Below, in pieces: positions 2,077 through 62,932 of a DNA stretch of 64,000 nucleotides. Source of the DNA: Escherichia coli O157 typing phage 13. The notes under the pieces were generated by a model, which made no database searches, was not told the DNA's origin, and worked only from the letters and a program-made list of their open reading frames with translations. The number at the start of each line of letters is the position of its first letter. Within the stretch, counting starts at the first letter, position 1. The position numbers and the translations under genes are program-made. The stretch lies in sequence record KP869111; one strand, written 5' to 3'.

Positions 2077-3892
2077 AGGACATCCATTCTTTACGAAGTT
2101 CTGAATCATCACCCAACAACATTTCAAAGAGTTCTTTCCAATTTTCAGGAAGTTTAACTACGTCGTACACAGGGTTCTGAATCATTTCACGATATTCTGA
2201 CTTTTCAAGGGAGCCTAATCCCTTGATGTATCGAATACTATGCTTAGGCAGTGTATCTTTAACTTCTTCATACTCAGCTACAGTATAAAACCATTTTTGA
2301 GCTTTGCCAATTTGTGCAATAATTACAGGCGTTTTAACAAAGCGAATACGTCCTTGTTCAAACAATTCAGGCCAATTACTAAAGAAAGCAAGCAAAGCCG
2401 GATAGATACTTCCAAGACCGTCGTGATCTGCATCAGTCATAATTGCAATATTACGATAGTTCGTATTCTCTGCCTTTTCACCAAGAATAAGACCTGTGAT
2501 AGCACAGATATCAAAGAGCTCTTTGTTCTTCATCATATCAGCATATGACATACCCCAGCTATTCATCACCTTACCACGTAATGGGAATCCGCCGTGTAGT
2601 TCACGGTCACGAACATCAATGAGATAACCAATTGCAGAATCACCTTCTGTTAAGAACAATGTCGTATCTGCATCTTTACCACATTGGTTAGCTTTAATAT
2701 GCTTATGAACCTTAGCTTTAGTTGCCTTTTTAGCTGCTTTAGTTTCTGCAGCCTTTTCTGCTGCCAATTTACGAGCTAATGCTGCTTCAACAATAGGCAT
2801 AATCAAGGCTTCGTTTTTAAGAAGTGCCTGAGCAATTTTCTTAGCATCTAATTGGATATGATTACGAATATCACCATACGTTGACGTTAAACGTTCTTTA
2901 GTCTGAGAATCAAAACGCATGTTGCTCATGTCTCTAATAAACATCAACATTGTGAGGCATTCTTTAACACGAGCTTTAGTGACTTCAATACCCTTATATT
3001 TCTTTTTAATACCCGGCAAAAGATGTTCGCAGATATCGTCCATTACACATTCAACATGATGACCACCATTTTTAGTATGGATGTTATTCACATAAGTTAA
3101 ATGACGGAAGCCATCTGGTGATGTTGTGAATGCTATAGAGACTTTATCATTTTCTTGAATGATGTTATCTTCACCAAATTGTTTAGCAAATCGTTTAAAA
3201 TTACCATCAACCTTTTTACCATTAAATGTGAACTTGATATCAGGATAAACGACTGCCAATGTTTGAAGTCGGTCTAAAGTAATATCTAAATAAATTTGAG
3301 ATAAATTATGCTCTTCAAATGAAGAGAAATCAGGAGTGAAGATTACTTTAGTGCCTTTACCTTTAGATTTCTTAGAAGACCATGATTTGTTTTCCATTCC
3401 GTTTGAACAGTTAACAGTGATTTCATTTTCGCCATCTGACGTGATGCCTGTAAACAACGTAGAGAAGATATTAGTTAAACTACTCCCGACGCCGTTCATA
3501 CCACCAGTCTTGCGTTCAGAATCATCGCCAAAGTTACCACCAGCTTTTGGAATAGTCCAGGCTGCTACAGGCCCAGGAATTTGTTCACCTGTTTGGTCGG
3601 TAACTAAACCTTGAGGAATACCACGTCCGTTATCTTCCACCGAAACTTGATTATTTTTAATTTGCACATCAATTTTATTTGCAAACTTAAATGATGTACG
3701 AATAGCTTCATCAACCGAGTTGTCAATAATCTCATCGATTAATTTAACCAGACCAGGAACATATTCAACTTGTTGATATTTACCAAACAAAAAACGCTCG
3801 TGGGCTTCTTTGGCCGAAGAACCAATATACATGCCACTACGTTTCTTAATATGTTCTACATCTGACAGTACCTTAATTTCATTTTTAATCAT
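2075..3892 (-). CDS. 39: DNA topoisomerase II large (ATPase, GyrB-like) subunit, single ORF covering the T4 gene 39 + gene 60 functions
   Basis: 605 aa; GHKL ATPase motifs (NGRGIP, GGxxGxG) and Toprim (EGDSA, DADHDG); strong GAGGAG SD; no hop or intron interruption. Confidence 0.9.
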   Translation of the reverse strand: MIKNEIKVLSDVEHIKKRSGMYIGSSAKEAHERFLFGKYQQVEYVPGLVKLIDEIIDNSVDEAIRTSFKFANKIDVQIKNNQVSVEDNGRGIPQGLVTDQTGEQIPGPVAAWTIPKAGGNFGDDSERKTGGMNGVGSSLTNIFSTLFTGITSDGENEITVNCSNGMENKSWSSKKSKGKGTKVIFTPDFSSFEEHNLSQIYLDITLDRLQTLAVVYPDIKFTFNGKKVDGNFKRFAKQFGEDNIIQENDKVSIAFTTSPDGFRHLTYVNNIHTKNGGHHVECVMDDICEHLLPGIKKKYKGIEVTKARVKECLTMLMFIRDMSNMRFDSQTKERLTSTYGDIRNHIQLDAKKIAQALLKNEALIMPIVEAALARKLAAEKAAETKAAKKATKAKVHKHIKANQCGKDADTTLFLTEGDSAIGYLIDVRDRELHGGFPLRGKVMNSWGMSYADMMKNKELFDICAITGLILGEKAENTNYRNIAIMTDADHDGLGSIYPALLAFFSNWPELFEQGRIRFVKTPVIIAQIGKAQKWFYTVAEYEEVKDTLPKHSIRYIKGLGSLEKSEYREMIQNPVYDVVKLPENWKELFEMLLGDDSELRKEWMS

Positions 3893-4455
3893 GTTGTCTC
3901 CTCGTTATGAAGGTATTCTATCATCCGAAATCTAAAGCAAANNNNNNNNNNNNNNNNNNNNNNNNNNNNNNNNNNNNNNNNNNNNNNNNNNNNNNNNNNN
4001 NNNNNNNNNNNNNNNNNNNNNNNNNNNNNNNNNNNNNNNNNNNNNNNNNNNNNNNNNNNNNNNNNNNNNNNNNNNNNNNNNNNNNNNNTTTTAACTGTAA
4101 TGACCACATCACCTGATACGATCACCGAACCATCAACAAATTCTATAGAGCCTTTTTTGAAATCGACAGCTGTATCTGGTTCCGGAACTTCTTCAAAGAA
4201 TTTAAATTCTGCACCATAAATCAGAATATCACCTTGCATACTAATGATTGTACGTCCAGGTCCATCGGTTTCAGCGGCAATCATTGAAACACCGTAGCCA
4301 ATCATCTCTTCTACAATAAAATCTCTTGATAATAAAACCGTATGCAGAGTAGTGTTAAGACGTTTACCAGTCGTATTAAGAATTCTCAAGAAATTATCTT
4401 CCTGTCCTTTGATAATACGATATTTCTTACCAACTTCAAAACCTTTAAAAGCCAT
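3889..4455 (-). CDS. hypothetical protein (ORF spans assembly gap)
   Basis: 188-codon ORF whose stop overlaps gp39 ATG (ATGA); middle 49 codons are N; C-terminal segment carries the gp39 SD. Confidence 0.4.
   Translation of the reverse strand: MAFKGFEVGKKYRIIKGQEDNFLRILNTTGKRLNTTLHTVLLSRDFIVEEMIGYGVSMIAAETDGPGRTIISMQGDILIYGAEFKFFEEVPEPDTAVDFKKGSIEFVDGSVIVSGDVVITVKXXXXXXXXXXXXXXXXXXXXXXXXXXXXXXXXXXXXXXXXXXXXXXXXXXCFRFRMIEYLHNEETT
3942..4088. other. assembly gap (147 N)
   Basis: run of n characters. Confidence 0.95.
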
Positions 4456-4639: not shown

Positions 4640-5050
4640 TTATTCCTTAAAATGTGCTTTCAACATTTGATACAAAGACCATGCCTGGTCATTATTTTTG
4701 ATAGTAATCGTCATCACAGGAAATTCAGACAATTCATCAAGTTCACCAGAATCTTGCTCTTCGGACGCTTGATATGGATTTCCAACTTCGTCAAAGAACT
4801 CTGCTTCATTAGTGGAGAGCCAAATAAAGTTTTCATCAAGAATATCACCGCCTGTTGCGTATCCAACTGTGCCAGTAGATGTCACAATTTTAGTAGGACG
4901 ACCAAGATGGTCAACATCTAATACTTTAAATGGTTCCATGCCAAGACGTCGTGCATAAATCCCATTATCAGTGTGGTCTTTAATAAACTCTTCTTGGGCA
5001 CGTTTATCTTTAAATTGGTACCATGAGTTAACGCGGAATTTATTAGCCAT
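4640..5050 (-). CDS. hypothetical protein
   Basis: ORF track 4640..5068 begins with TTG; first ATG (MANKF...) at 5050 with GGAAGGA upstream and TAATG overlap with upstream stop. Confidence 0.5.
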
Positions 5051-5277
5051 TAGTAAGTTTCCTTCCAATAAGTTGTACCGTTTTCAGTGATTTCACGGAA
5101 GATACCATAGATGGGCATTTCATCGCCAAGTTTTTCGTAAACGTAAACCACTTCGGTGTAGCATAAAAATTCGGTCCAGTTTTTCTGTACAACAACTAAA
5201 TCAGGATTAAACAGAACATCTTCAAACTCATCGATGTTTGAATCGGTAGTTACGTTTTTAATGATTTGACGTTTCAT
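5050..5277 (-). CDS. hypothetical protein
   Basis: Start moved to internal ATG (MKRQIIK...) preceded by AAGAGGAGA SD; the track's upstream extension lies inside the promoter hairpin. Confidence 0.5.
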
Positions 5278-5334: not shown

Positions 5335-5859
5335 TCATTTTAGCAAAATAAAATCAACTTGTTCTGCCAATGAACGTCTAAACATTAATTGACAACTTCC
5401 GAGTATGAAATCAGGTGCTTCATAGACCGCGATGTAGTATCCTTTAGCTTTCAAGAGTTCAACATCCACTTGGTCATCAAACCATGCATAAACCGCGTCA
5501 ACACTTTCAAATCCAAAATAGAACCCTTGAGCCCAATCTTCACTCAATTCAAATGTGTACTCAATTCTATGGTATCTTAAGATATTTTGTTCAAGGAGTT
5601 TGTCTTCATTTACTGTAGGACGATTAGGGACATTATAGTTGTCGCCGTGATGGTAGAAGTTACCTGAGAGTATTCCATGCTTATCAAGGAATTCCCATGT
5701 TTCTTCAGAGTTGTCGGTGCCTGACCAACCGTACGGCGAGCGAGGTTCTTTATTCCAAGAGGTTTCCCAAATTCTGACGGCTTTACCGTCTTCGATAGCA
5801 ATTCCTGGTAATGATTCACGTTGAGTACAAAAACTACGTTCTACGCGGTAAACTAACAT
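5335..5859 (-). CDS. hypothetical protein
   Basis: 174 aa; ATG preceded by GAGGAG SD and an early promoter at 5886-5914. Confidence 0.6.
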   Translation of the reverse strand: MLVYRVERSFCTQRESLPGIAIEDGKAVRIWETSWNKEPRSPYGWSGTDNSEETWEFLDKHGILSGNFYHHGDNYNVPNRPTVNEDKLLEQNILRYHRIEYTFELSEDWAQGFYFGFESVDAVYAWFDDQVDVELLKAKGYYIAVYEAPDFILGSCQLMFRRSLAEQVDFILLK

Positions 5860-5918: not shown

Positions 5919-6338
5919 TTATGCGAAAGCAGCTGGGCTATATTTTTTAATTTGGAATTCAGGAACTACCATGAACTGTCCAGCGAAAACAATGTTATAA
6001 AGCTTAACACCATCTTCTACCCAACGGTCGCTAATAAATCCGGCGATTTGCTTAGTTTTCCACGGTGTTCCATCAGTTGCCGCAGCAATAGTGAATTCAT
6101 GGTCTTTTTCAACAGAAACTGATCTGCATAATCCCCATTTGAACGCTTTTTCTTCCGGTTCAATGAATTGGCTTTTAACGTAACCAATGTTACCATCAGC
6201 GTCACGAACTTTAACTTCGTTACGTCCAAAAACAGGATCACTCACAGAAAGAACTTCAACCAACTTCCCGGCAACTTTAGAGCGAGAAGCAACAGATACA
6301 TATACGTAATCACCTGTAGAGAGATTTACAATATTCAT
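5919..6338 (-). CDS. hypothetical protein, member of 3-gene tandem paralog family
   Basis: 139 aa; C-terminal motif ISDRWVEDGVKLYNIVFAGQFMVVP shared with the next two genes. Confidence 0.6.
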   Translation of the reverse strand: MNIVNLSTGDYVYVSVASRSKVAGKLVEVLSVSDPVFGRNEVKVRDADGNIGYVKSQFIEPEEKAFKWGLCRSVSVEKDHEFTIAAATDGTPWKTKQIAGFISDRWVEDGVKLYNIVFAGQFMVVPEFQIKKYSPAAFA

Positions 6339-6347
6339 AATAATTCC

Positions 6348-6803
6348 TTAAGCTTTACGAGGAGACACATAGCGAGTGATTTCAGATTCTTTAACAACTC
6401 GGAAGTCACCTAAGAATACGATATTGTATAACTTTTCACCATCTTCAACCCATTGGTCACTAATGAAGCCACACATGGTATCAGTTGTGCTTGGATAGCC
6501 GTATTCATCGATGAAGTCAAATTCTTTATCAGTCTGGAATTCAACACCTTTACACAAGGCCCATTTGAACTGTACATTAGGTTCAGTAGAAGCAAAATGA
6601 GCGCTCACATGAGTTTCCAAGAATTTAGGACTTACGTAAGCATATTGAGTATCCTGACGTCCAAAACTAGGAATGATTCGAACTTTAACTTCTTTAATAC
6701 GTCCCATGCCATTTGTGCGAAGTCCGACAACTTCAACCAGACGACCTGCGGCTTTAGAACGGGATGCAGTTGATACACGCTTAATTTCACCAATAGTAAT
6801 CAT
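6348..6803 (-). CDS. hypothetical protein, tandem paralog family member
   Basis: 151 aa; C-terminal ISDQWVEDGEKLYNIVFLGDFRVV. Confidence 0.6.
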   Translation of the reverse strand: MITIGEIKRVSTASRSKAAGRLVEVVGLRTNGMGRIKEVKVRIIPSFGRQDTQYAYVSPKFLETHVSAHFASTEPNVQFKWALCKGVEFQTDKEFDFIDEYGYPSTTDTMCGFISDQWVEDGEKLYNIVFLGDFRVVKESEITRYVSPRKA

Positions 6804-6831
6804 AATTTCTCTCTTTGTTTAAATTGAATTC

Positions 6832-6860
6832 ACTATACTCCATCCATCCTTGGATGTACA
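6832..6860 (-). promoter_or_regulatory. early-type promoter (TGTACA -35, TATAGT -10) with conserved CCAAGGATGG spacer
   Basis: minus strand TGTACA-TCCAAGGATGGATGGAG-TATAGT. Confidence 0.45.
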
Positions 6861-6863
6861 ACA

Positions 6864-7358
6864 TTAATTTAGAATATTAACCACAGCACTACGTGGAACT
6901 ACACTAAAATCACCTGCATGAACAACGTTCAGAAGTTCAACACCGTCTTCAATCCACTGGTCAGTTACCCAGCCACTTACCGGTCCAGCGAATGGTCGAC
7001 GAATTGAAACTGCTTTACACAACAAGTCTGTAGGCTCGATAGGTTTAACTAAAGTACCGTACATAGAAGCGATGTCCATATCAAAGTGGAGACCATCTTT
7101 AACAGGTGCTTCTCCAATCAACAGTTCAAAGTCGGTGCTTGGAAGGGCGGTAGTAGAAATTGTACCATATGAATTTTTAATTTCTAAGAATAACCAAGGG
7201 CCTTCAGCTTGTTTGATGAAGTTAACAATAGTGAAACTATTACCTTGAGTGGCACCTAAAATTTCACAAAACTTTTCATAAGCTCGCACTGAAGCACCGT
7301 ACCAGTTGATTTGTTTTTCGTCTTTCAGGATGTAAGTGGCCGTAGTATTGATATTCAT
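6864..7358 (-). CDS. hypothetical protein, tandem paralog family member
   Basis: Track ORF begins with TTG inside the promoter; first ATG (MNINTT...) at 7358; C-terminal VTDQWIEDGVELLNVVHAGDFSVVP. Confidence 0.55.
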   Translation of the reverse strand: MNINTTATYILKDEKQINWYGASVRAYEKFCEILGATQGNSFTIVNFIKQAEGPWLFLEIKNSYGTISTTALPSTDFELLIGEAPVKDGLHFDMDIASMYGTLVKPIEPTDLLCKAVSIRRPFAGPVSGWVTDQWIEDGVELLNVVHAGDFSVVPRSAVVNILN

Positions 7359-7388: not shown

Positions 7389-7418
7389 ATTATACTCCAA
7401 CCATCCTTGGTTGTAAAC
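7389..7418 (-). promoter_or_regulatory. early-type promoter GTTTACA-N17-TATAAT with conserved spacer ACCAAGGATGGTTGGAG
   Basis: near-identical copies at 49400-49429 and 50419-50448. Confidence 0.55.
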
Positions 7419-7423
7419 TGTTT

Positions 7424-8101
7424 TTATCGCTGTTTTACACTTAACGGGTCAGGATTCTCAGGGACATCTTCAAGGCCAAGCGCATAACGCTGAGCATATT
7501 TTAACATCAAAATATCTTTAGCACAATCATGAATACTATCATGGGCAACGAATCCTTTTAGCGTACCCATCGGTAATGGACACATACTTAATCCTCGTGT
7601 CAACGAGTAAGCTTCGATTGCTGTACGAATATCACGTTGAGCCCAGAATTTAACCGGTTCTAATTTATCAGTATCAATATCTGGTTCAAGAACACCTTCA
7701 TCACGATAGAGGTCACGAATCAAATCGACCAAGATCGGGAAGTCAAAGCTCATACCACGGCACCACATCTGTGATTTCCATTGGTCAACTTTATTAGCTC
7801 GACAATAATCTAAAAAGATTTTAATGCCTTCAAGCGTAGTGACATCGTCTTCAGACGGAGCCAAGTTTTTACGTGCTTCAGCCGATTGTTCTTTCCACCA
7901 TTTCATAGTGGATTTAGCGAAAACTCGCTTCCCTTTCTGAGAAGCTAAATTAAATTTAATTCGCTTACCTCGTTGAACAAGTTCTTCAAATGATTCAACA
8001 ACTTCAGGGTCGGAATTATATGCAATAACCGCAAGGTCAATAACAGCCGCTTTTGATGTATTGCCGAATGTTTCAAAGTCTATAATAACATCAGTGCTCA
8101 T
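7424..8101 (-). CDS. dexA: exonuclease A (3'-5' DNA exonuclease)
   Basis: 225 aa; MSTDVIIDFETFG...DSIHDCAKDI matches T4 DexA as recalled. Confidence 0.85.
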   Translation of the reverse strand: MSTDVIIDFETFGNTSKAAVIDLAVIAYNSDPEVVESFEELVQRGKRIKFNLASQKGKRVFAKSTMKWWKEQSAEARKNLAPSEDDVTTLEGIKIFLDYCRANKVDQWKSQMWCRGMSFDFPILVDLIRDLYRDEGVLEPDIDTDKLEPVKFWAQRDIRTAIEAYSLTRGLSMCPLPMGTLKGFVAHDSIHDCAKDILMLKYAQRYALGLEDVPENPDPLSVKQR

Positions 8102-8110
8102 AATTTTCTC

Positions 8111-9424
8111 TCAAATAAAATGGACGTCAAAACGACCACGAGTCGTGCCGACATACAATAACTGTTTAGCTAATTCTGAATCGGCATAATGGATACACGG
8201 TGTATAAACAAAGGCCGTGTCAACAGACATACCCTGGGCCTTATGGAAGGTTGATACAGGTAGTGCCTTCACCTTAGTGAACATACGTTTAGCATCCCAG
8301 AATTCGCTCCATGGAGCTTTACCGCCTTTATTCCAGAATTTATATGTTTCTGCGGTCTTAGCCAAAAACAAATTGAATTTATAAAGCTCTTCTTCAGAAG
8401 AAATAACCTTTATATCTTCACGGATGTATTCTTCATCATCACTATATGTTTCTACTGTAAGATTCCAGTATCGTATCATATATTCGCCTGAAACACCGCG
8501 TGCTTTAACGAATGTAGACGTTTCTACAGCATCTCGAATACGAACGAATTGCCCGTTATTGAAAAGCATTTCGGTCATATTTTTGCCATCTAGCTTATAT
8601 GTCTTAGTAAATGGCTCTTGTAGAACAATGACTTCGTCTTTAATAAATGGCTTTTCTGTTTCGAGAAGTTTTCGGCGAATAATTGAATTTAACTTGTCCA
8701 CCGACTTATTTGTGAATGCCATCATTCGATTTTCGAAAAGGTCTTCAGGAGTTTTAACGACGTTAAAATAGTTCATCATATACGATTTAAGGTCTGTATA
8801 TCCATGAACACCGTGCCCATCAACTACTTTATCGTAAATCCATTTGCCATTACGAATATCAGTCGCAACATCAATAATTGGCGCATTGCTACGTTTAACT
8901 TCTGTAAGGTTGCATTGCACGAAGTCTTTGTGAGTGAAGAAAGGACTTAGATACGCAGTTGATTCGCCTGGGTCTACCGGACGAATCTGGCATCGGTCGC
9001 CGATTCCAATTACTGTGCACCATTTAGGGATACTAGCTAACATTATTTTAAACAGAGGACGGTCGCACATTGACGCTTCATCAAATAACAGTACACGACA
9101 CAAGGCTAAGTCGGGAACCTTTTTCTGTTCAAACAATACGTTTTCTTCGTATGTAGTTGGGTTGATTTTAAGAATGCTATGAATAGTCGATGCTTCTTGA
9201 CCCGCAAGTTTGCTTAGAACCTTTTTAGCAGCATGTGTAGGGGCTGCTAAAATAATACCTGATTCTCCGGCAGAAATAAGAGCTTCAACGATGAATCTAG
9301 TAAGGGTTGTTTTACCTGTACCAGCAGGCCCATTAATAGTTACGTGATGTTTCTTTTCTTTAATAGCGTTCATAACAACGTTGAAGGCGTTTTTCTGGCC
9401 TTCAGTCAAATCATCAAATGTCAT
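8111..9424 (-). CDS. dda: Dda DNA helicase (SF1B)
   Basis: 437 aa; MTFDDLTEGQKNAF...GPAGTGKTT Walker A; very close to T4 Dda as recalled. Confidence 0.9.
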   Translation of the reverse strand: MTFDDLTEGQKNAFNVVMNAIKEKKHHVTINGPAGTGKTTLTRFIVEALISAGESGIILAAPTHAAKKVLSKLAGQEASTIHSILKINPTTYEENVLFEQKKVPDLALCRVLLFDEASMCDRPLFKIMLASIPKWCTVIGIGDRCQIRPVDPGESTAYLSPFFTHKDFVQCNLTEVKRSNAPIIDVATDIRNGKWIYDKVVDGHGVHGYTDLKSYMMNYFNVVKTPEDLFENRMMAFTNKSVDKLNSIIRRKLLETEKPFIKDEVIVLQEPFTKTYKLDGKNMTEMLFNNGQFVRIRDAVETSTFVKARGVSGEYMIRYWNLTVETYSDDEEYIREDIKVISSEEELYKFNLFLAKTAETYKFWNKGGKAPWSEFWDAKRMFTKVKALPVSTFHKAQGMSVDTAFVYTPCIHYADSELAKQLLYVGTTRGRFDVHFI

Positions 9425-48121: not shown

Positions 48122-48426
48122 TATAATGTTCTCTCAAATTTGTGGAAGCATTTACGGCATTTCAATTTCAAGTTATCACTGGTCCAGTTAACCAGTTGGA
48201 CTTGGATAGTTCCACATTCCGGACATGGATGTTTTGCTGCCGATTTGGCAGCATTTTCACGTCGTTCAACCATTTTCATGATTTCGTTCCATGCTGGAGG
48301 AACGAACTCTTCTTCACCGTGGATTTTATCTCGCTGAACAAATTCAATCTTTGAACTATCGTCAATAAACTTAACCAAGCGGTGATTAGTGTTCATATCA
48401 ATATCCTCTAAAAGACGTAGTTTCAT
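48121..48426 (-). CDS. hypothetical protein with C-terminal zinc-ribbon (CPEC...CRKC)
   Basis: 101-aa ORF. Confidence 0.45.
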   Translation of the reverse strand: MKLRLLEDIDMNTNHRLVKFIDDSSKIEFVQRDKIHGEEEFVPPAWNEIMKMVERRENAAKSAAKHPCPECGTIQVQLVNWTSDNLKLKCRKCFHKFERTL

Positions 48427-49370
48427 TATAACACCTCAATGGCATTTCGTAAACCATCCGCTTTCGCATTCAGAGCTTTTAACGATTTAGTCTGTTCTTT
48501 AATCTGGGCTTCGACTTCTTTCAGACGAGATTTGAGATATTCGCGTTCTTCGGCCATGATATCGACCTTTTCTGCTTTAGGTTCTTTAATAGGCTTAAAC
48601 ACATTAGGGTTCTTCAGTTTAATTTTAATTCGAGAACTGAATAACATTGAACCGTTATCTTCGGTTTCGTCGAACATTTCAACAACATCCATAGTCTGTA
48701 ACATCATGCGAAGTTTATAAGACAGAGAACGAATGGTTTTGTTGCGCTTATTAATTTCTTCGGCTTTCATGGTACCGAGATTACGTGAGTAATAATAAGG
48801 AACCTGGATATCAATTGATAACGATGCGTTACCATTACCAGTTGGTTTGAATACTGCAGTAACCCAATCTTTAACATGAACTTTATTTGTACGACCATCG
48901 CCGCCTGTGAATAATTTACGTGAATGTTTAAAAAGCATATTCACTTGGTTATTGAATTCACAAGCAAATTTATCAGCAAATTTAGTTTCAGGAATGGTGG
49001 AGAACCAATCAGCTAAATGAGTCTTTTTAACATCATTAACAATAGTGAATTCAACCAAATCGGTTTTAGATGTCACAGATTTAATAAAGCTCGGTTTCAT
49101 AAAGTTTTTAATGTTATCACGAGCCACAGTAGAAGATAATAAACGAGAACGTTTGAACCATTGAAGCAACGTCCCTAATGAATGAGAATATGCATTTTGA
49201 GTATCTTTACAGATATGATTTTCTTGGCCTGTGTATGTACCAAAATCGCGAAGAATACCACTTACTACATCTCGGTGTGGAACATCAAATCCTAATGAAC
49301 CAGAAGCACGTTGGGCATGAACGTTAGCGATAAGACCTGCAAAGTATTCAATGTAATGTGAACGTGTCAT
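48426..49370 (-). CDS. hypothetical protein with C-terminal coiled coil
   Basis: 314 aa; own conserved promoter at 49400-49429. Confidence 0.55.
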   Translation of the reverse strand: MTRSHYIEYFAGLIANVHAQRASGSLGFDVPHRDVVSGILRDFGTYTGQENHICKDTQNAYSHSLGTLLQWFKRSRLLSSTVARDNIKNFMKPSFIKSVTSKTDLVEFTIVNDVKKTHLADWFSTIPETKFADKFACEFNNQVNMLFKHSRKLFTGGDGRTNKVHVKDWVTAVFKPTGNGNASLSIDIQVPYYYSRNLGTMKAEEINKRNKTIRSLSYKLRMMLQTMDVVEMFDETEDNGSMLFSSRIKIKLKNPNVFKPIKEPKAEKVDIMAEEREYLKSRLKEVEAQIKEQTKSLKALNAKADGLRNAIEVL

Positions 49371-49399
49371 AATATTTTCCTCTCGTTAAGATAGATTCA

Positions 49400-49429
49400 T
49401 TATACTCCAACCATCCTTGGTTGTAAACT
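49400..49429 (-). promoter_or_regulatory. early-type promoter, conserved copy (GTTTACAACCAAGGATGGTTGGAGTATAAT)
   Basis: identical core to 7389-7418. Confidence 0.55.
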
Positions 49430-49432
49430 ATT

Positions 49433-50392
49433 TTATGATTTTAACGCATTCATTGCGTTAAAAAGTTTAGAATACTGCAACTGGAGATTCGTTACAACAC
49501 TTTGAGCATCACGAAGCTTAGCTTGTGCTTTGTCAAGTTCAACAGACAGTTGGTCCATAGTGGCCTTGATTTGATTGTAATGGTAATCTTCGGCCGGAAG
49601 AAGGTCATTAGAAACATTTAGTTTTACTGCAGACAGTTTGCACACATTTGGCAAACCTTTAAACATTGATTTACCCGAAGTAGAATAAGCACTTAGGACT
49701 TCGGCCTGTTCAATTGGGGTCCCAGTAAGCGATGCTTCAAACAATGCATTTTCCTTTTTAAGATTTTGATAATATTCGGAGTCTTTGTGCCACCATGGCG
49801 CAGGAACCTTTTTACCAATAGATACACGAGCCTGGATAGCGATATGGCCCTTATTCTTGATAAGGTCGATAATATTAAGCTCACGAGAATAAATCGCTTT
49901 AATCTGGTGGATATTATCACCTAAAACTTCCAACGCTTGGTGGAATACACGAGCGACATTATCATTCTTAGGTTTATACGTAAGAGTGAACTCATTCTCA
50001 CTGATAACCATGATTTCCAACTTATCGTAAGTATATTTCAAATGTTTCATGTTAATTGCTTGAGGACGAATACGAGAAGCAATGGCCATCAGATTGTTAA
50101 GGTTATTCCGGAACTGCTTAGCGAAATATTGTCCTTCACCGCCAATACAAAAATTACGAAGTTTCTGTTTGGCCAATAAACGGCTGAACTCACCATTTTT
50201 AATGAACTCTTTAACGGGTGTGTTAGTAACGCATTCAAATTGAGTAAACTTACGAGAAGTAATCCCATAATATGAACAGATTTCCTCAATCTCTTCAGGA
50301 GTCTTTACAGGCATACGGATAGGATTAGGTCCTGGAGTATATGCGTTCGAGGTAAATTCTTTGATAAGTTCTCTACGTGTAATAAAAGCCAT
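49433..50392 (-). CDS. hypothetical protein with C-terminal coiled coil
   Basis: 319 aa; GAGGAA SD; own conserved promoter. Confidence 0.55.
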   Translation of the reverse strand: MAFITRRELIKEFTSNAYTPGPNPIRMPVKTPEEIEEICSYYGITSRKFTQFECVTNTPVKEFIKNGEFSRLLAKQKLRNFCIGGEGQYFAKQFRNNLNNLMAIASRIRPQAINMKHLKYTYDKLEIMVISENEFTLTYKPKNDNVARVFHQALEVLGDNIHQIKAIYSRELNIIDLIKNKGHIAIQARVSIGKKVPAPWWHKDSEYYQNLKKENALFEASLTGTPIEQAEVLSAYSTSGKSMFKGLPNVCKLSAVKLNVSNDLLPAEDYHYNQIKATMDQLSVELDKAQAKLRDAQSVVTNLQLQYSKLFNAMNALKS

Positions 50393-50418: not shown

Positions 50419-50448
50419 ATTATACTCCAACCATCCTTGGTTGTACAT
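50419..50448 (-). promoter_or_regulatory. early-type promoter, conserved copy (TGTACAACCAAGGATGGTTGGAGTATAAT)
   Basis: 26-nt identity with copies at 7389 and 49400. Confidence 0.55.
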
Positions 50449-51443
50449 CATTCCTTAAGAAGTTTTACTACCTGAATAAGATTAGCTCGTTCTGTTTTAT
50501 TTTTACCGTTTAAGCCTGCTAATCGTGAGATTTCATCGTCAGTCTGTTGAATAGTTACATTAAGTTCGTTAATCAAAGCTTCAAAGTATTTGATTTGCTC
50601 AGCATGTTTTGATTCAAATTTCTGAACCGGAATAACGTCTTGGTTCAGTTCATCAATAAGGTCTTTAAGAGCATCTTCTTGGTTGATATCATATTCAACT
50701 TCTTTTATTTCTTCAACGAGCTCGTCTTTATATCTAACGTCTTTTAGTCCTGGAGCTGGTCCTGAAATCTCTTCTTTAAGAGTACAAACATACCCAATAC
50801 GGTATCCAACGCCGTCTCGCTTGATATCAACTTCGTCGATAAATCCACAATGTTTAAGTCCAGAGCCGATTATGTCAAAATATCCTTGACGTCGTCCTTC
50901 AAACGTTACACGAACTACTAAGACGGTTTTGCCACCGACCTTTTGAAGCTCACATTTATAAAAGTTTGTTGAACCTGAATAACATGGATGAGTTTTAAAG
51001 TTCATCTGACGATCTAGGCCCATTTGTAAACGTGCTGTTACGGCCATAAAACGTGTTTGGTTCTCGTTAAGATGAGCAACAATCCATTTCAAAGGCATTT
51101 TACCCTGTTCACGGCCGAACAAATCAGTACGTCCTAGATTACGCAGGATGTTGTTAGAGTTAATCATCGACAGAACGTTAAGTTTATTCAGCGCGCTGAA
51201 GATTCCATCAGCCATTGATTTTCCATAACCTTTACACGCTTTAATAAGTGCTCGCGGCAGATTAGTATAGATTTCAGACGGCATATGAAAATCAAATTTA
51301 CTAGTCAGTAATTGATGAACTTGGATAGCAATTTGCTCATAATTAAGTGCTCTGCGATCGTTATGGTCTTTAAACCATACTTTAATCTGTGAAGCACATA
51401 AACCGTTAATTTCATGTTTTACCGCATCAGATGTAATGCTCAT
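50448..51443 (-). CDS. hypothetical protein with C-terminal coiled coil
   Basis: 331-aa ORF. Confidence 0.55.
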   Translation of the reverse strand: MSITSDAVKHEINGLCASQIKVWFKDHNDRRALNYEQIAIQVHQLLTSKFDFHMPSEIYTNLPRALIKACKGYGKSMADGIFSALNKLNVLSMINSNNILRNLGRTDLFGREQGKMPLKWIVAHLNENQTRFMAVTARLQMGLDRQMNFKTHPCYSGSTNFYKCELQKVGGKTVLVVRVTFEGRRQGYFDIIGSGLKHCGFIDEVDIKRDGVGYRIGYVCTLKEEISGPAPGLKDVRYKDELVEEIKEVEYDINQEDALKDLIDELNQDVIPVQKFESKHAEQIKYFEALINELNVTIQQTDDEISRLAGLNGKNKTERANLIQVVKLLKE

Positions 51444-62506: not shown

Positions 62507-62932
62507 TTATACTCTAGGCTTTTGAGCTTGTTTGGTATTGGATTCCCATGCGGCTTTGGTAATTTTGTTAGTGGCATAACCAAAGGCATTAGATAGAACA
62601 CCTTTAGAGTTGAATACATCCAATCCAATAAGTACACCGGCTGTGTTAAATTTAGGAGCAAAGTACGCATTAGTTTTAGAAAGAGCTTTTTTCAATTCNN
62701 NNNNNNNNNNNNNNNNNNNNNNNNNNNNNNNNNNNNNNNNNNNNNNNNNNNNNNNNNNNNNNNNNNNNNNNNNNNNNNNNNNNNNNNNNNNNNNAGGGTC
62801 TTGAACCAAACCATCAAAAACGCCTTTACTATTTACTTTATATGTTACTTTGGGATTTTTACCTTCTTCGATAGCAGCTTTCTGTTCCGCAGATAATGTA
62901 ACTTCAGTGATAAACTCCTGATATGTTTTCAT
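62507..62932 (-). CDS. head internal protein (IP) with capsid targeting sequence; ORF spans assembly gap
   Basis: N-terminus MKTYQEFITE is the T4 IP capsid-targeting signature; 32 codons are N. Confidence 0.5.
   Translation of the reverse strand: MKTYQEFITEVTLSAEQKAAIEEGKNPKVTYKVNSKGVFDGLVQDPXXXXXXXXXXXXXXXXXXXXXXXXXXXXXXXXELKKALSKTNAYFAPKFNTAGVLIGLDVFNSKGVLSNAFGYATNKITKAAWESNTKQAQKPRV
62699..62794. other. assembly gap (96 N)
   Basis: run of n characters. Confidence 0.95.

Follow-up and report, generated by a model that had tools for sequence, protein, structure and literature searches.

A run of three consecutive genes, here designated X, Y and Z, lies on the minus strand of the 64,000-nucleotide stretch of Escherichia coli O157 typing phage 13 DNA analysed in this study (sequence record KP869111; the whole stretch is hereafter referred to as the window). 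The initial annotation regarded them as tandem paralogues positioned between the motB-region genes and dexA, and did not recognise their function. The tandem paralogy is confirmed and the coordinates and protein sizes assigned to the three genes are correct, but the genes are themselves motB genes and their family is known: X, Y and Z each exceed the curated gathering threshold (25 bits) of the PF17613 'motB' profile. PHROGs labels phrog_1671, to which Y and Z belong, as MotB-like transcriptional regulator, and RefSeq applies the same designation to both, X being listed as hypothetical. Since Patterson-West et al. (PMC7827196) have already reported a C-terminal domain (CTD) shared by proteins with differing N-terminal domains (NTDs), and have described two motB genes, one motB.1 gene and a 29-amino acid (aa) peptide in phage RB69, both the family of the three genes and their arrangement were known beforehand; the observation stands and has firm statistical support, but is ordinary.

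Y matches PF17613 over profile positions 2-157 (E 3e-37) and phrog_1671 with an E-value of 2.4e-64. It is 93% identical to MotB of RB69 (P0130) and 48% identical to MotB of phage T4, with which it shares the two-domain layout, the cef ... dexA-dda neighbourhood and an early promoter. Z matches the same two profiles (E 1.7e-21 and 1.3e-51, respectively), has the layout of T4 MotB at 43-44% identity, and aligns with Y over 145 residues, that is along its whole length, at 43% identity (BLASTP 2e-32). Homologues of Z at 84-94% identity were found only in RB68-, mogra-, moha- and ST2-type phages, and a neighbour-joining tree sets the Z clade outside the canonical MotB proteins altogether. X is matched by PF17613 in its C-terminal part only (E 1.4e-8), while phrog_2333 covers residues 1-164 (E 3.7e-80). 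It follows the NTD-plus-CTD plan of MotB.1, the 'Category 2' protein of Patterson-West et al. 2021 (PMC7827196), whose gene adjoins motB in T4 as X does here, and is 46% identical to the 143-aa T4-type MotB.1 (P0011) at 99% coverage (46-54% identity and 98-99% coverage for the 143-145-aa T4-type proteins as a group), from which it differs in having a linker that is longer by approximately 20 residues (HFDMDIASMYGTLVKP); the 166-169-aa and 180-250-aa forms possess this segment as well. The earlier view that the three proteins diverge except for a C-terminal block is thus upheld for X relative to Y and Z, but not for Y relative to Z.

The C-terminal motif itself is real. The alignment of X, Y and Z contains 21 invariant columns, 13 of them within G..D.W.EDG..L.N.V..G.F.VV; all three proteins conform to the core G(F/W)(I/V)(S/T)DQW(V/I)EDG..L.N(I/V)V..G.F.V(V/I)P, and L, F, G, D, W, E, L, N and V are invariant among 61 diverse homologues, X, Y and Z included. 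Its significance is supported by the comparison of MotB-type and MotB.1-type profiles built from disjoint sets (hhalign), in which 38 columns align with a probability of 98.7% and an E-value of 3e-16. Only three copies were found, as tblastn detected no fourth family member in the window.

Ahead of the CTD, both Y and Z carry a KOW/SH3-like domain (I.IGE..RVS..SRSKAAG.LVEV), which matches PF17613 by itself (Y positions 2-67, E 8e-15; Z, E 1.3e-4). The NTD of X displayed no profile similarity to that of MotB (hhalign, disjoint sets, E 0.39), and the same type of comparison gave no signal for an internal NTD-CTD duplication or for kinship between the MotB and MotB.1 NTDs (E 0.39-0.75). Among PDB chains, none matched the sequence of Y at E <= 1. 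Secreted bacterial proteins (P0276, P0282) contain SH3b-type repeats (...GYISSKYLKK) that align with the profile of the family in its N-terminal part, the matches of these two proteins and of P0279, P0280 and P0283 to this profile having E-values of 1e-8 to 1e-4. Together with a weak match of the Z NTD to Pfam SH3_3 (E 0.1), these repeats hint that bacterial SH3 domains, not KOW domains, may be the nearer relatives of the MotB NTD.

The position of the cluster is that of MotB proper, namely the early cef-dexA-dda region on the same strand and behind a promoter-like cassette, as judged by the consensus scan on which all promoter calls in this study are based. The 26-nt cassette, ACANCCAAGGATGGNTGGAGTATART (general form ACA(A/T)CCAAGGATGG(T/A)TGGAGTATA(A/G)T, with a conserved spacer), is present in four copies in the window, where none is expected. 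One copy would drive X and another the Y-Z pair, making all three early genes. Z starts 9 bp past the stop codon of Y and its AAGGA ribosome-binding site overlaps that codon, for which reason Z is most simply taken to be co-transcribed with Y; the assertion that each gene has its own promoter consequently holds for X and Y, in front of which promoter-like sites are present, and fails for Z (Table 1).

Table 1. Features of the motB region of the window and copies of the promoter cassette
Feature	Position	Strand	Basis or remark
cef	5050-5277	minus	neighbour
motB.2-like gene, 174 aa, no MotB domain	5335-5859	minus	phrog_1106; RB69 annotation; 33% identity with T4 MotB.2
Z, second motB, 139 aa	5919-6338	minus	PF17613, phrog_1671
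Shared block of Z, residues 98-135	5934-6047	minus	alignment
Y, motB orthologue, 151 aa	6348-6803	minus	PF17613, phrog_1671
Shared block of Y, residues 110-147	6363-6476	minus	alignment
Predicted early promoter of the Y-Z unit, TGTACA-17-TATAGT	6832-6860	minus	second cassette copy
X, motB.1 orthologue, 164 aa	6864-7358	minus	phrog_2333, PF17613 (C-terminal part only)
Shared block of X, residues 127-164, VSGWVTDQWIEDGVELLNVVHAGDFSVVPRSAVVNILN	6867-6980	minus	alignment
Predicted early sigma-70-type promoter of X (motB.1), TTTACA-17-TATAAT	7389-7417	minus	11/12 consensus matches
dexA exonuclease gene, upstream of the X/Y/Z cluster	7424-8101	minus	neighbour
dda	8111-9424	minus	neighbour
Cassette copies	6832-6857, 7389-7414, 49399-49424, 50419-50444	all minus	

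The other two cassette copies are located upstream of tandem ORFs (open reading frames) of approximately 320 aa at 48426-50392. Three consecutive ORFs with coiled-coil-like C-termini occur there on the minus strand (48426-49370, 49433-50392 and 50448-51443; 314, 319 and 331 aa), two of them preceded by the cassette, and may constitute another tandem paralogue set. The cassette has the appearance of a repeated early-promoter module and could act as a recombination substrate. Database entries for Y orthologues are often 165-186 aa long (L004 1877-2437, L005 5495-6043, L006 395-913; P0121, P0124 and others) because an upstream ATG opens the frame through the promoter region from the motB.1 stop; such starts are probably start-codon mis-calls, and the N-terminal extension of the Y frame is closed in the window.

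The minus-strand gene order is goF-like, cef, motB.2-like, Z, Y, X, dexA, dda, and the cef ... motB genes ... dexA-dda synteny is common to the window, T4 and RB69. The queried 2,151 bases are 100% identical to those of Escherichia coli O157 typing phages 3 and 6 (NC_041863, NC_041864), members of the genus Mosigvirus (RB69 group, Tevenvirinae). The copy-number comparison suggested in the initial annotation was performed on 14 loci supplemented with protein-cluster tables, IMG/VR contributing 11 related loci, and distinguished three arrangements: dexA - motB.1 - motB - second motB - motB.2 - cef in Mosigvirus-type genomes, RB69 having the order of the window; dexA - motB.2 - motB.1 (143 or 180 aa) - motB - cef in the T4 type; and dexA - motB.2 - motB.1-type gene (182 or 250 aa) - motB - cef in loci L007-L012. 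It is therefore motB.2, not motB.1, that adjoins dexA in T4, whereas in the window X does so. The location of motB.2 on the cef side of the motB genes in Mosigvirus, as opposed to between motB.1 and dexA in T4-type loci (L002 2662-3162) and L007-L012, represents a small rearrangement inside the cluster. The window also contains two masked stretches, N runs at 3942-4088 (147 bases) and 62699-62794 (96 bases), the first of which breaks an ORF at 3889-4455.

AlphaFold2 models of X and Y were obtained with mean predicted local distance difference test (pLDDT) scores of 83.6 and 85.0, respectively, the linker of Y (residues 66-75) scoring below 50. In both models the motif forms strands 2-5 of a five-strand C-terminal barrel (the strands of the shared block in X spanning residues 127-137, 140-147, 150-155 and 159-163), with 'EDG' and 'xGx' making tight turns and strands 4 and 5 separated by a helix of three residues. 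Since a helix in this position is an SH3-like signature, we read the CTD as SH3-like, the conserved motif being the predicted core of an SH3/Tudor-like beta-barrel of approximately 55-70 residues that corresponds to the CTD of PF17613. The charge distribution differs between the proteins: Y combines a basic KOW/SH3-like NTD (net +7.5, pI (isoelectric point) 11), a disordered linker and an acidic CTD (-5.2); the NTD of Z is near-neutral; and X, consisting of an acidic beta-rich NTD, a linker and the MotB-family CTD, has a pI of 4.7 and is acidic over its full extent. When approximately 240 proteins from four groups of the family were examined, the median net charge of the shared block lay between -1 and -4 in every group.

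MotB was published as a KOW domain followed by an OB-fold, based on HHpred (PMC7827196), while the present models indicate two tandem SH3/Tudor-like barrels. The cold-shock type of OB-fold (SCOPe b.40.4.5), with its helix between strands 3 and 4 and its OB-fold neighbours, was not recovered in the CTD. The corresponding functional proposal, in which the shared CTD is a cold-shock-type DNA-binding module, X, Y and Z are independent non-specific binders and the NTDs are accessory, is considered unlikely. The tandem Tudor domain of 53BP1, SHH1 SAWADEE and SPT5 KOW6-KOW7 resemble the family in fold only (9-19% identity, no detectable sequence relationship), and the relative orientation of the domains in tandem Tudor/KOW proteins differs, with root-mean-square deviations of 13-16 Å over the whole protein.

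The motB.1 gene carries a frameshift in the T4 reference record. NC_000866.4 (= AF158101.6) reads GGATTGGAAGATGG, with one extra G, where 11 other T4 records as well as RB55 and RB59 read GGATTGAAGATGG. The additional base, at approximately 2306 of L002 (NC_000866.4 5000-12500; record position ~7305), cuts MotB.1 from 143 to 119 aa (...DQWIGRWR, then a stop; coding sequence L002 2292-2651) inside the conserved motif, so that the T4 protein is deprived of the last 27 motif residues, while the rest of the motif, EDGVELLNVVHAGEYSVVPRSAVVAILN and its stop codon, lies out of frame in a 150-bp 'intergenic' gap (L002 2143-2291). MotB.1 is annotated at 143 aa in MT984581, and the identical 143-aa protein (P0011) was found in 256 contigs. 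In the RB69 record, two additional T residues that no other record has (L003 3877-4373; L003 = NC_004928.1 4500-11500) split motB.1 into ORFs of 132 and 29 aa, the latter being RB69ORF012c, which has been treated as a separate 'Category 3' peptide (PMC7827196). The order given for RB69 (NC_004928: motB.2, MotB-like, motB, 29-aa ORF, motB.1) hence differs from that of the window in that motB.1 is split there and intact here; the extra T pair is either a record error or a stock mutation.

These anomalies bear on published work. Kim et al. 2025 had genes synthesised and plasmids constructed by GenScript, specified the motB.1 amber-mutant fragment by NC_000866.4 coordinates and gave a monomer mass of 13.8 kDa (PMC12152347). 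We computed 13.8 kDa for the 119-aa truncated form and 16.2 kDa for the 143-aa protein; from this mass and these coordinates, the published MotB.1 construct corresponds to the truncated form, and the negative reporter and pull-down results published for MotB.1 were probably obtained with a protein in which half of the conserved CTD is missing. No mention of the frameshift is made in Kim et al. 2025 (PMC12152347) or in Patterson-West et al. 2021 (PMC7827196).

An alternative proposal assigns X (MotB.1) an action on RNA, exerted by its LSm-like NTD in the manner of an Hfq-like chaperone, and a function unrelated to that of MotB in spite of the common CTD. The NTDs of MotB.1, GoF and Frd.2 have been grouped as LSm-like folds, GoF(D25Y) stabilises an mRNA (PMC12152347), and the model of X contains an N-terminal five-strand domain. 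On the other hand, X is acidic, AlphaFold 3 produced no confident multimers (PMC12152347), and motB.1 adjoins motB in every surveyed locus and in both gene orders; MotB.1 was also without effect in the reporter assay (PMC12152347), a result which was obtained with the truncated 119-aa form. We consider an RNA-directed role of this kind rather improbable.

An exhaustive hidden Markov model search of 1.84 billion representatives yielded 38 family clusters at 50% identity, the most distant members of which retain a KOW-like NTD and the CTD. Within the family a single CTD is combined with varied NTDs, KOW-like in MotB and putatively LSm-like in MotB.1 (143-169 aa), the LSm-like module being repeated once or twice more before the CTD in the 180- and 250-aa forms, while P0070 joins a MotB-type NTD to a MotB.1-type CTD. 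Three proteins from short metagenome contigs (P0155, P0149, P0221) are apparent recombinants that combine the N-terminus of a Y-type or T4-type MotB with a C-terminus of the Z type, with crossovers at 'FKW' or within the conserved motif; these may reflect unequal crossing-over between tandem copies, or assembly chimeras.

It was previously suggested that the cluster is fast-diverging under diversifying selection, in which case duplication and positive selection in an anti-defence or host-range cassette would yield variants directed against different host immunity systems. Amino acid identity among close Mosigviruses is indeed 77-97% for X, Y and Z compared to 99-100% for dexA and dda, copy number and N-terminal modules differ between genera, Y/Z chimeras exist and the cluster is situated within a dispensable early region (PMC7827196). 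Gene-wide pairwise estimates by the Nei-Gojobori method against the Mosigvirus relatives RB69, L004, L005 and L006, the last three of which come from IMG/VR, nevertheless gave ratios of nonsynonymous to synonymous substitution (dN/dS) of 0.05-0.13 for X, 0.13-0.30 for Y and 0-0.16 for Z (0-0.07 for dexA and dda), i.e. never above 1, and dS is raised in X, Y and Z relative to dexA. As the ratios are well below 1 and dS is elevated, the data indicate that, for each gene as a whole, purifying selection has acted on alleles that are older or mosaic. Given in addition that the CTD hardly varies among family members, that the measured activities of T4 MotB, DNA coating and H-NS remodelling, are generic (PMC7827196) and that the literature searched gives no link between motB.1 and a defence system, a rapidly diversifying cassette appears very unlikely.

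The published properties of T4 MotB offer a functional framework. T4 MotB is described as an abundant early protein (PMC7827196, PMC6070864, PMC12449154) that binds DNA, modified or unmodified, with high affinity and irrespective of sequence (PMC7827196, PMC6070864), is toxic to E. coli upon overexpression and confers an approximately 2-fold benefit in burst size (PMC7827196, PMC6070864). H-NS and StpA co-purify with it through DNA only, and it dominates and alters the H-NS footprint (PMC7827196). It remodels H-NS-DNA complexes and derepresses H-NS-silenced genes, approximately 75 host genes being upregulated, one third of which are H-NS-regulated (PMC7827196, PMC12449154). The role in host interaction or anti-defence put forward in the initial annotation is compatible with these findings in so far as a host role is concerned and H-NS silencing is viewed as a defence; the diversifying selection that accompanied it is not borne out.

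We favour, with a probability of roughly 0.8, a reading in which X, Y and Z are early genes that place one SH3/Tudor-like CTD on interchangeable NTDs, with Y acting as T4 MotB does and X and Z as modulators. The partner of the barrel would be a strongly basic KOW/SH3-like NTD in MotB and an acidic LSm/SH3-like NTD in MotB.1. By orthology with T4 MotB, Y would be made in quantity soon after infection, coat host and phage DNA without sequence preference, shift the seating of H-NS on DNA, relieve H-NS silencing and improve burst size. Based on the charge distribution between NTD and CTD, the basic NTD of Y is likely to be the main source of DNA affinity, while the net-acidic shared barrel would more probably mediate protein-protein contacts, either self-association or binding of a common partner. 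Z and X may then represent variants or modulators of the same nucleoprotein complex as opposed to independent DNA binders.

Several points weigh against this interpretation. The experiments cover T4 MotB, whereas Mosigvirus MotB, Z and full-length MotB.1 are known from sequence or models; neither a deletion nor an amber mutant of T4 motB.1 had a phenotype under laboratory conditions (PMC12152347); the authors of the T4 work suggest that either MotB domain could bind DNA (PMC7827196); and, with the near-neutral NTD of Z and the acidity of X, transfer of the T4 MotB mechanism to these two proteins may be doubtful.

The outcome proposed for MotB, early relief of silencing by proteins of the H-NS family, is the same as that proposed for T7 gp5.5, T4 Arn and LUZ24 gp4. 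These proteins have neither sequence nor fold in common with MotB, and they either contact H-NS or MvaT directly or act as mimics of DNA, in contrast to the association of MotB with H-NS, which occurs only through DNA.

For work on the early genes of T-even phages, the corrections to the T4 and RB69 records are of modest practical value, although the discovery itself matters little. Useful by-products are the tandem barrel predicted by the models, the placement, by charge distribution, of the likely DNA-binding surface in the NTD and the delineation of a very small modular family. A more tentative extension, which we hold to be possible though improbable, is that the acidic barrel serves as a common association module by which Y, Z and X either assemble together on DNA or compete there for a single partner. 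If so, the published null results with plasmid-borne T4 MotB.1 would concern a protein lacking half of that module, the gene having been synthesised from the frameshifted reference record, and MotB.1 and Z would tune or cap the coating of the nucleoid by MotB.
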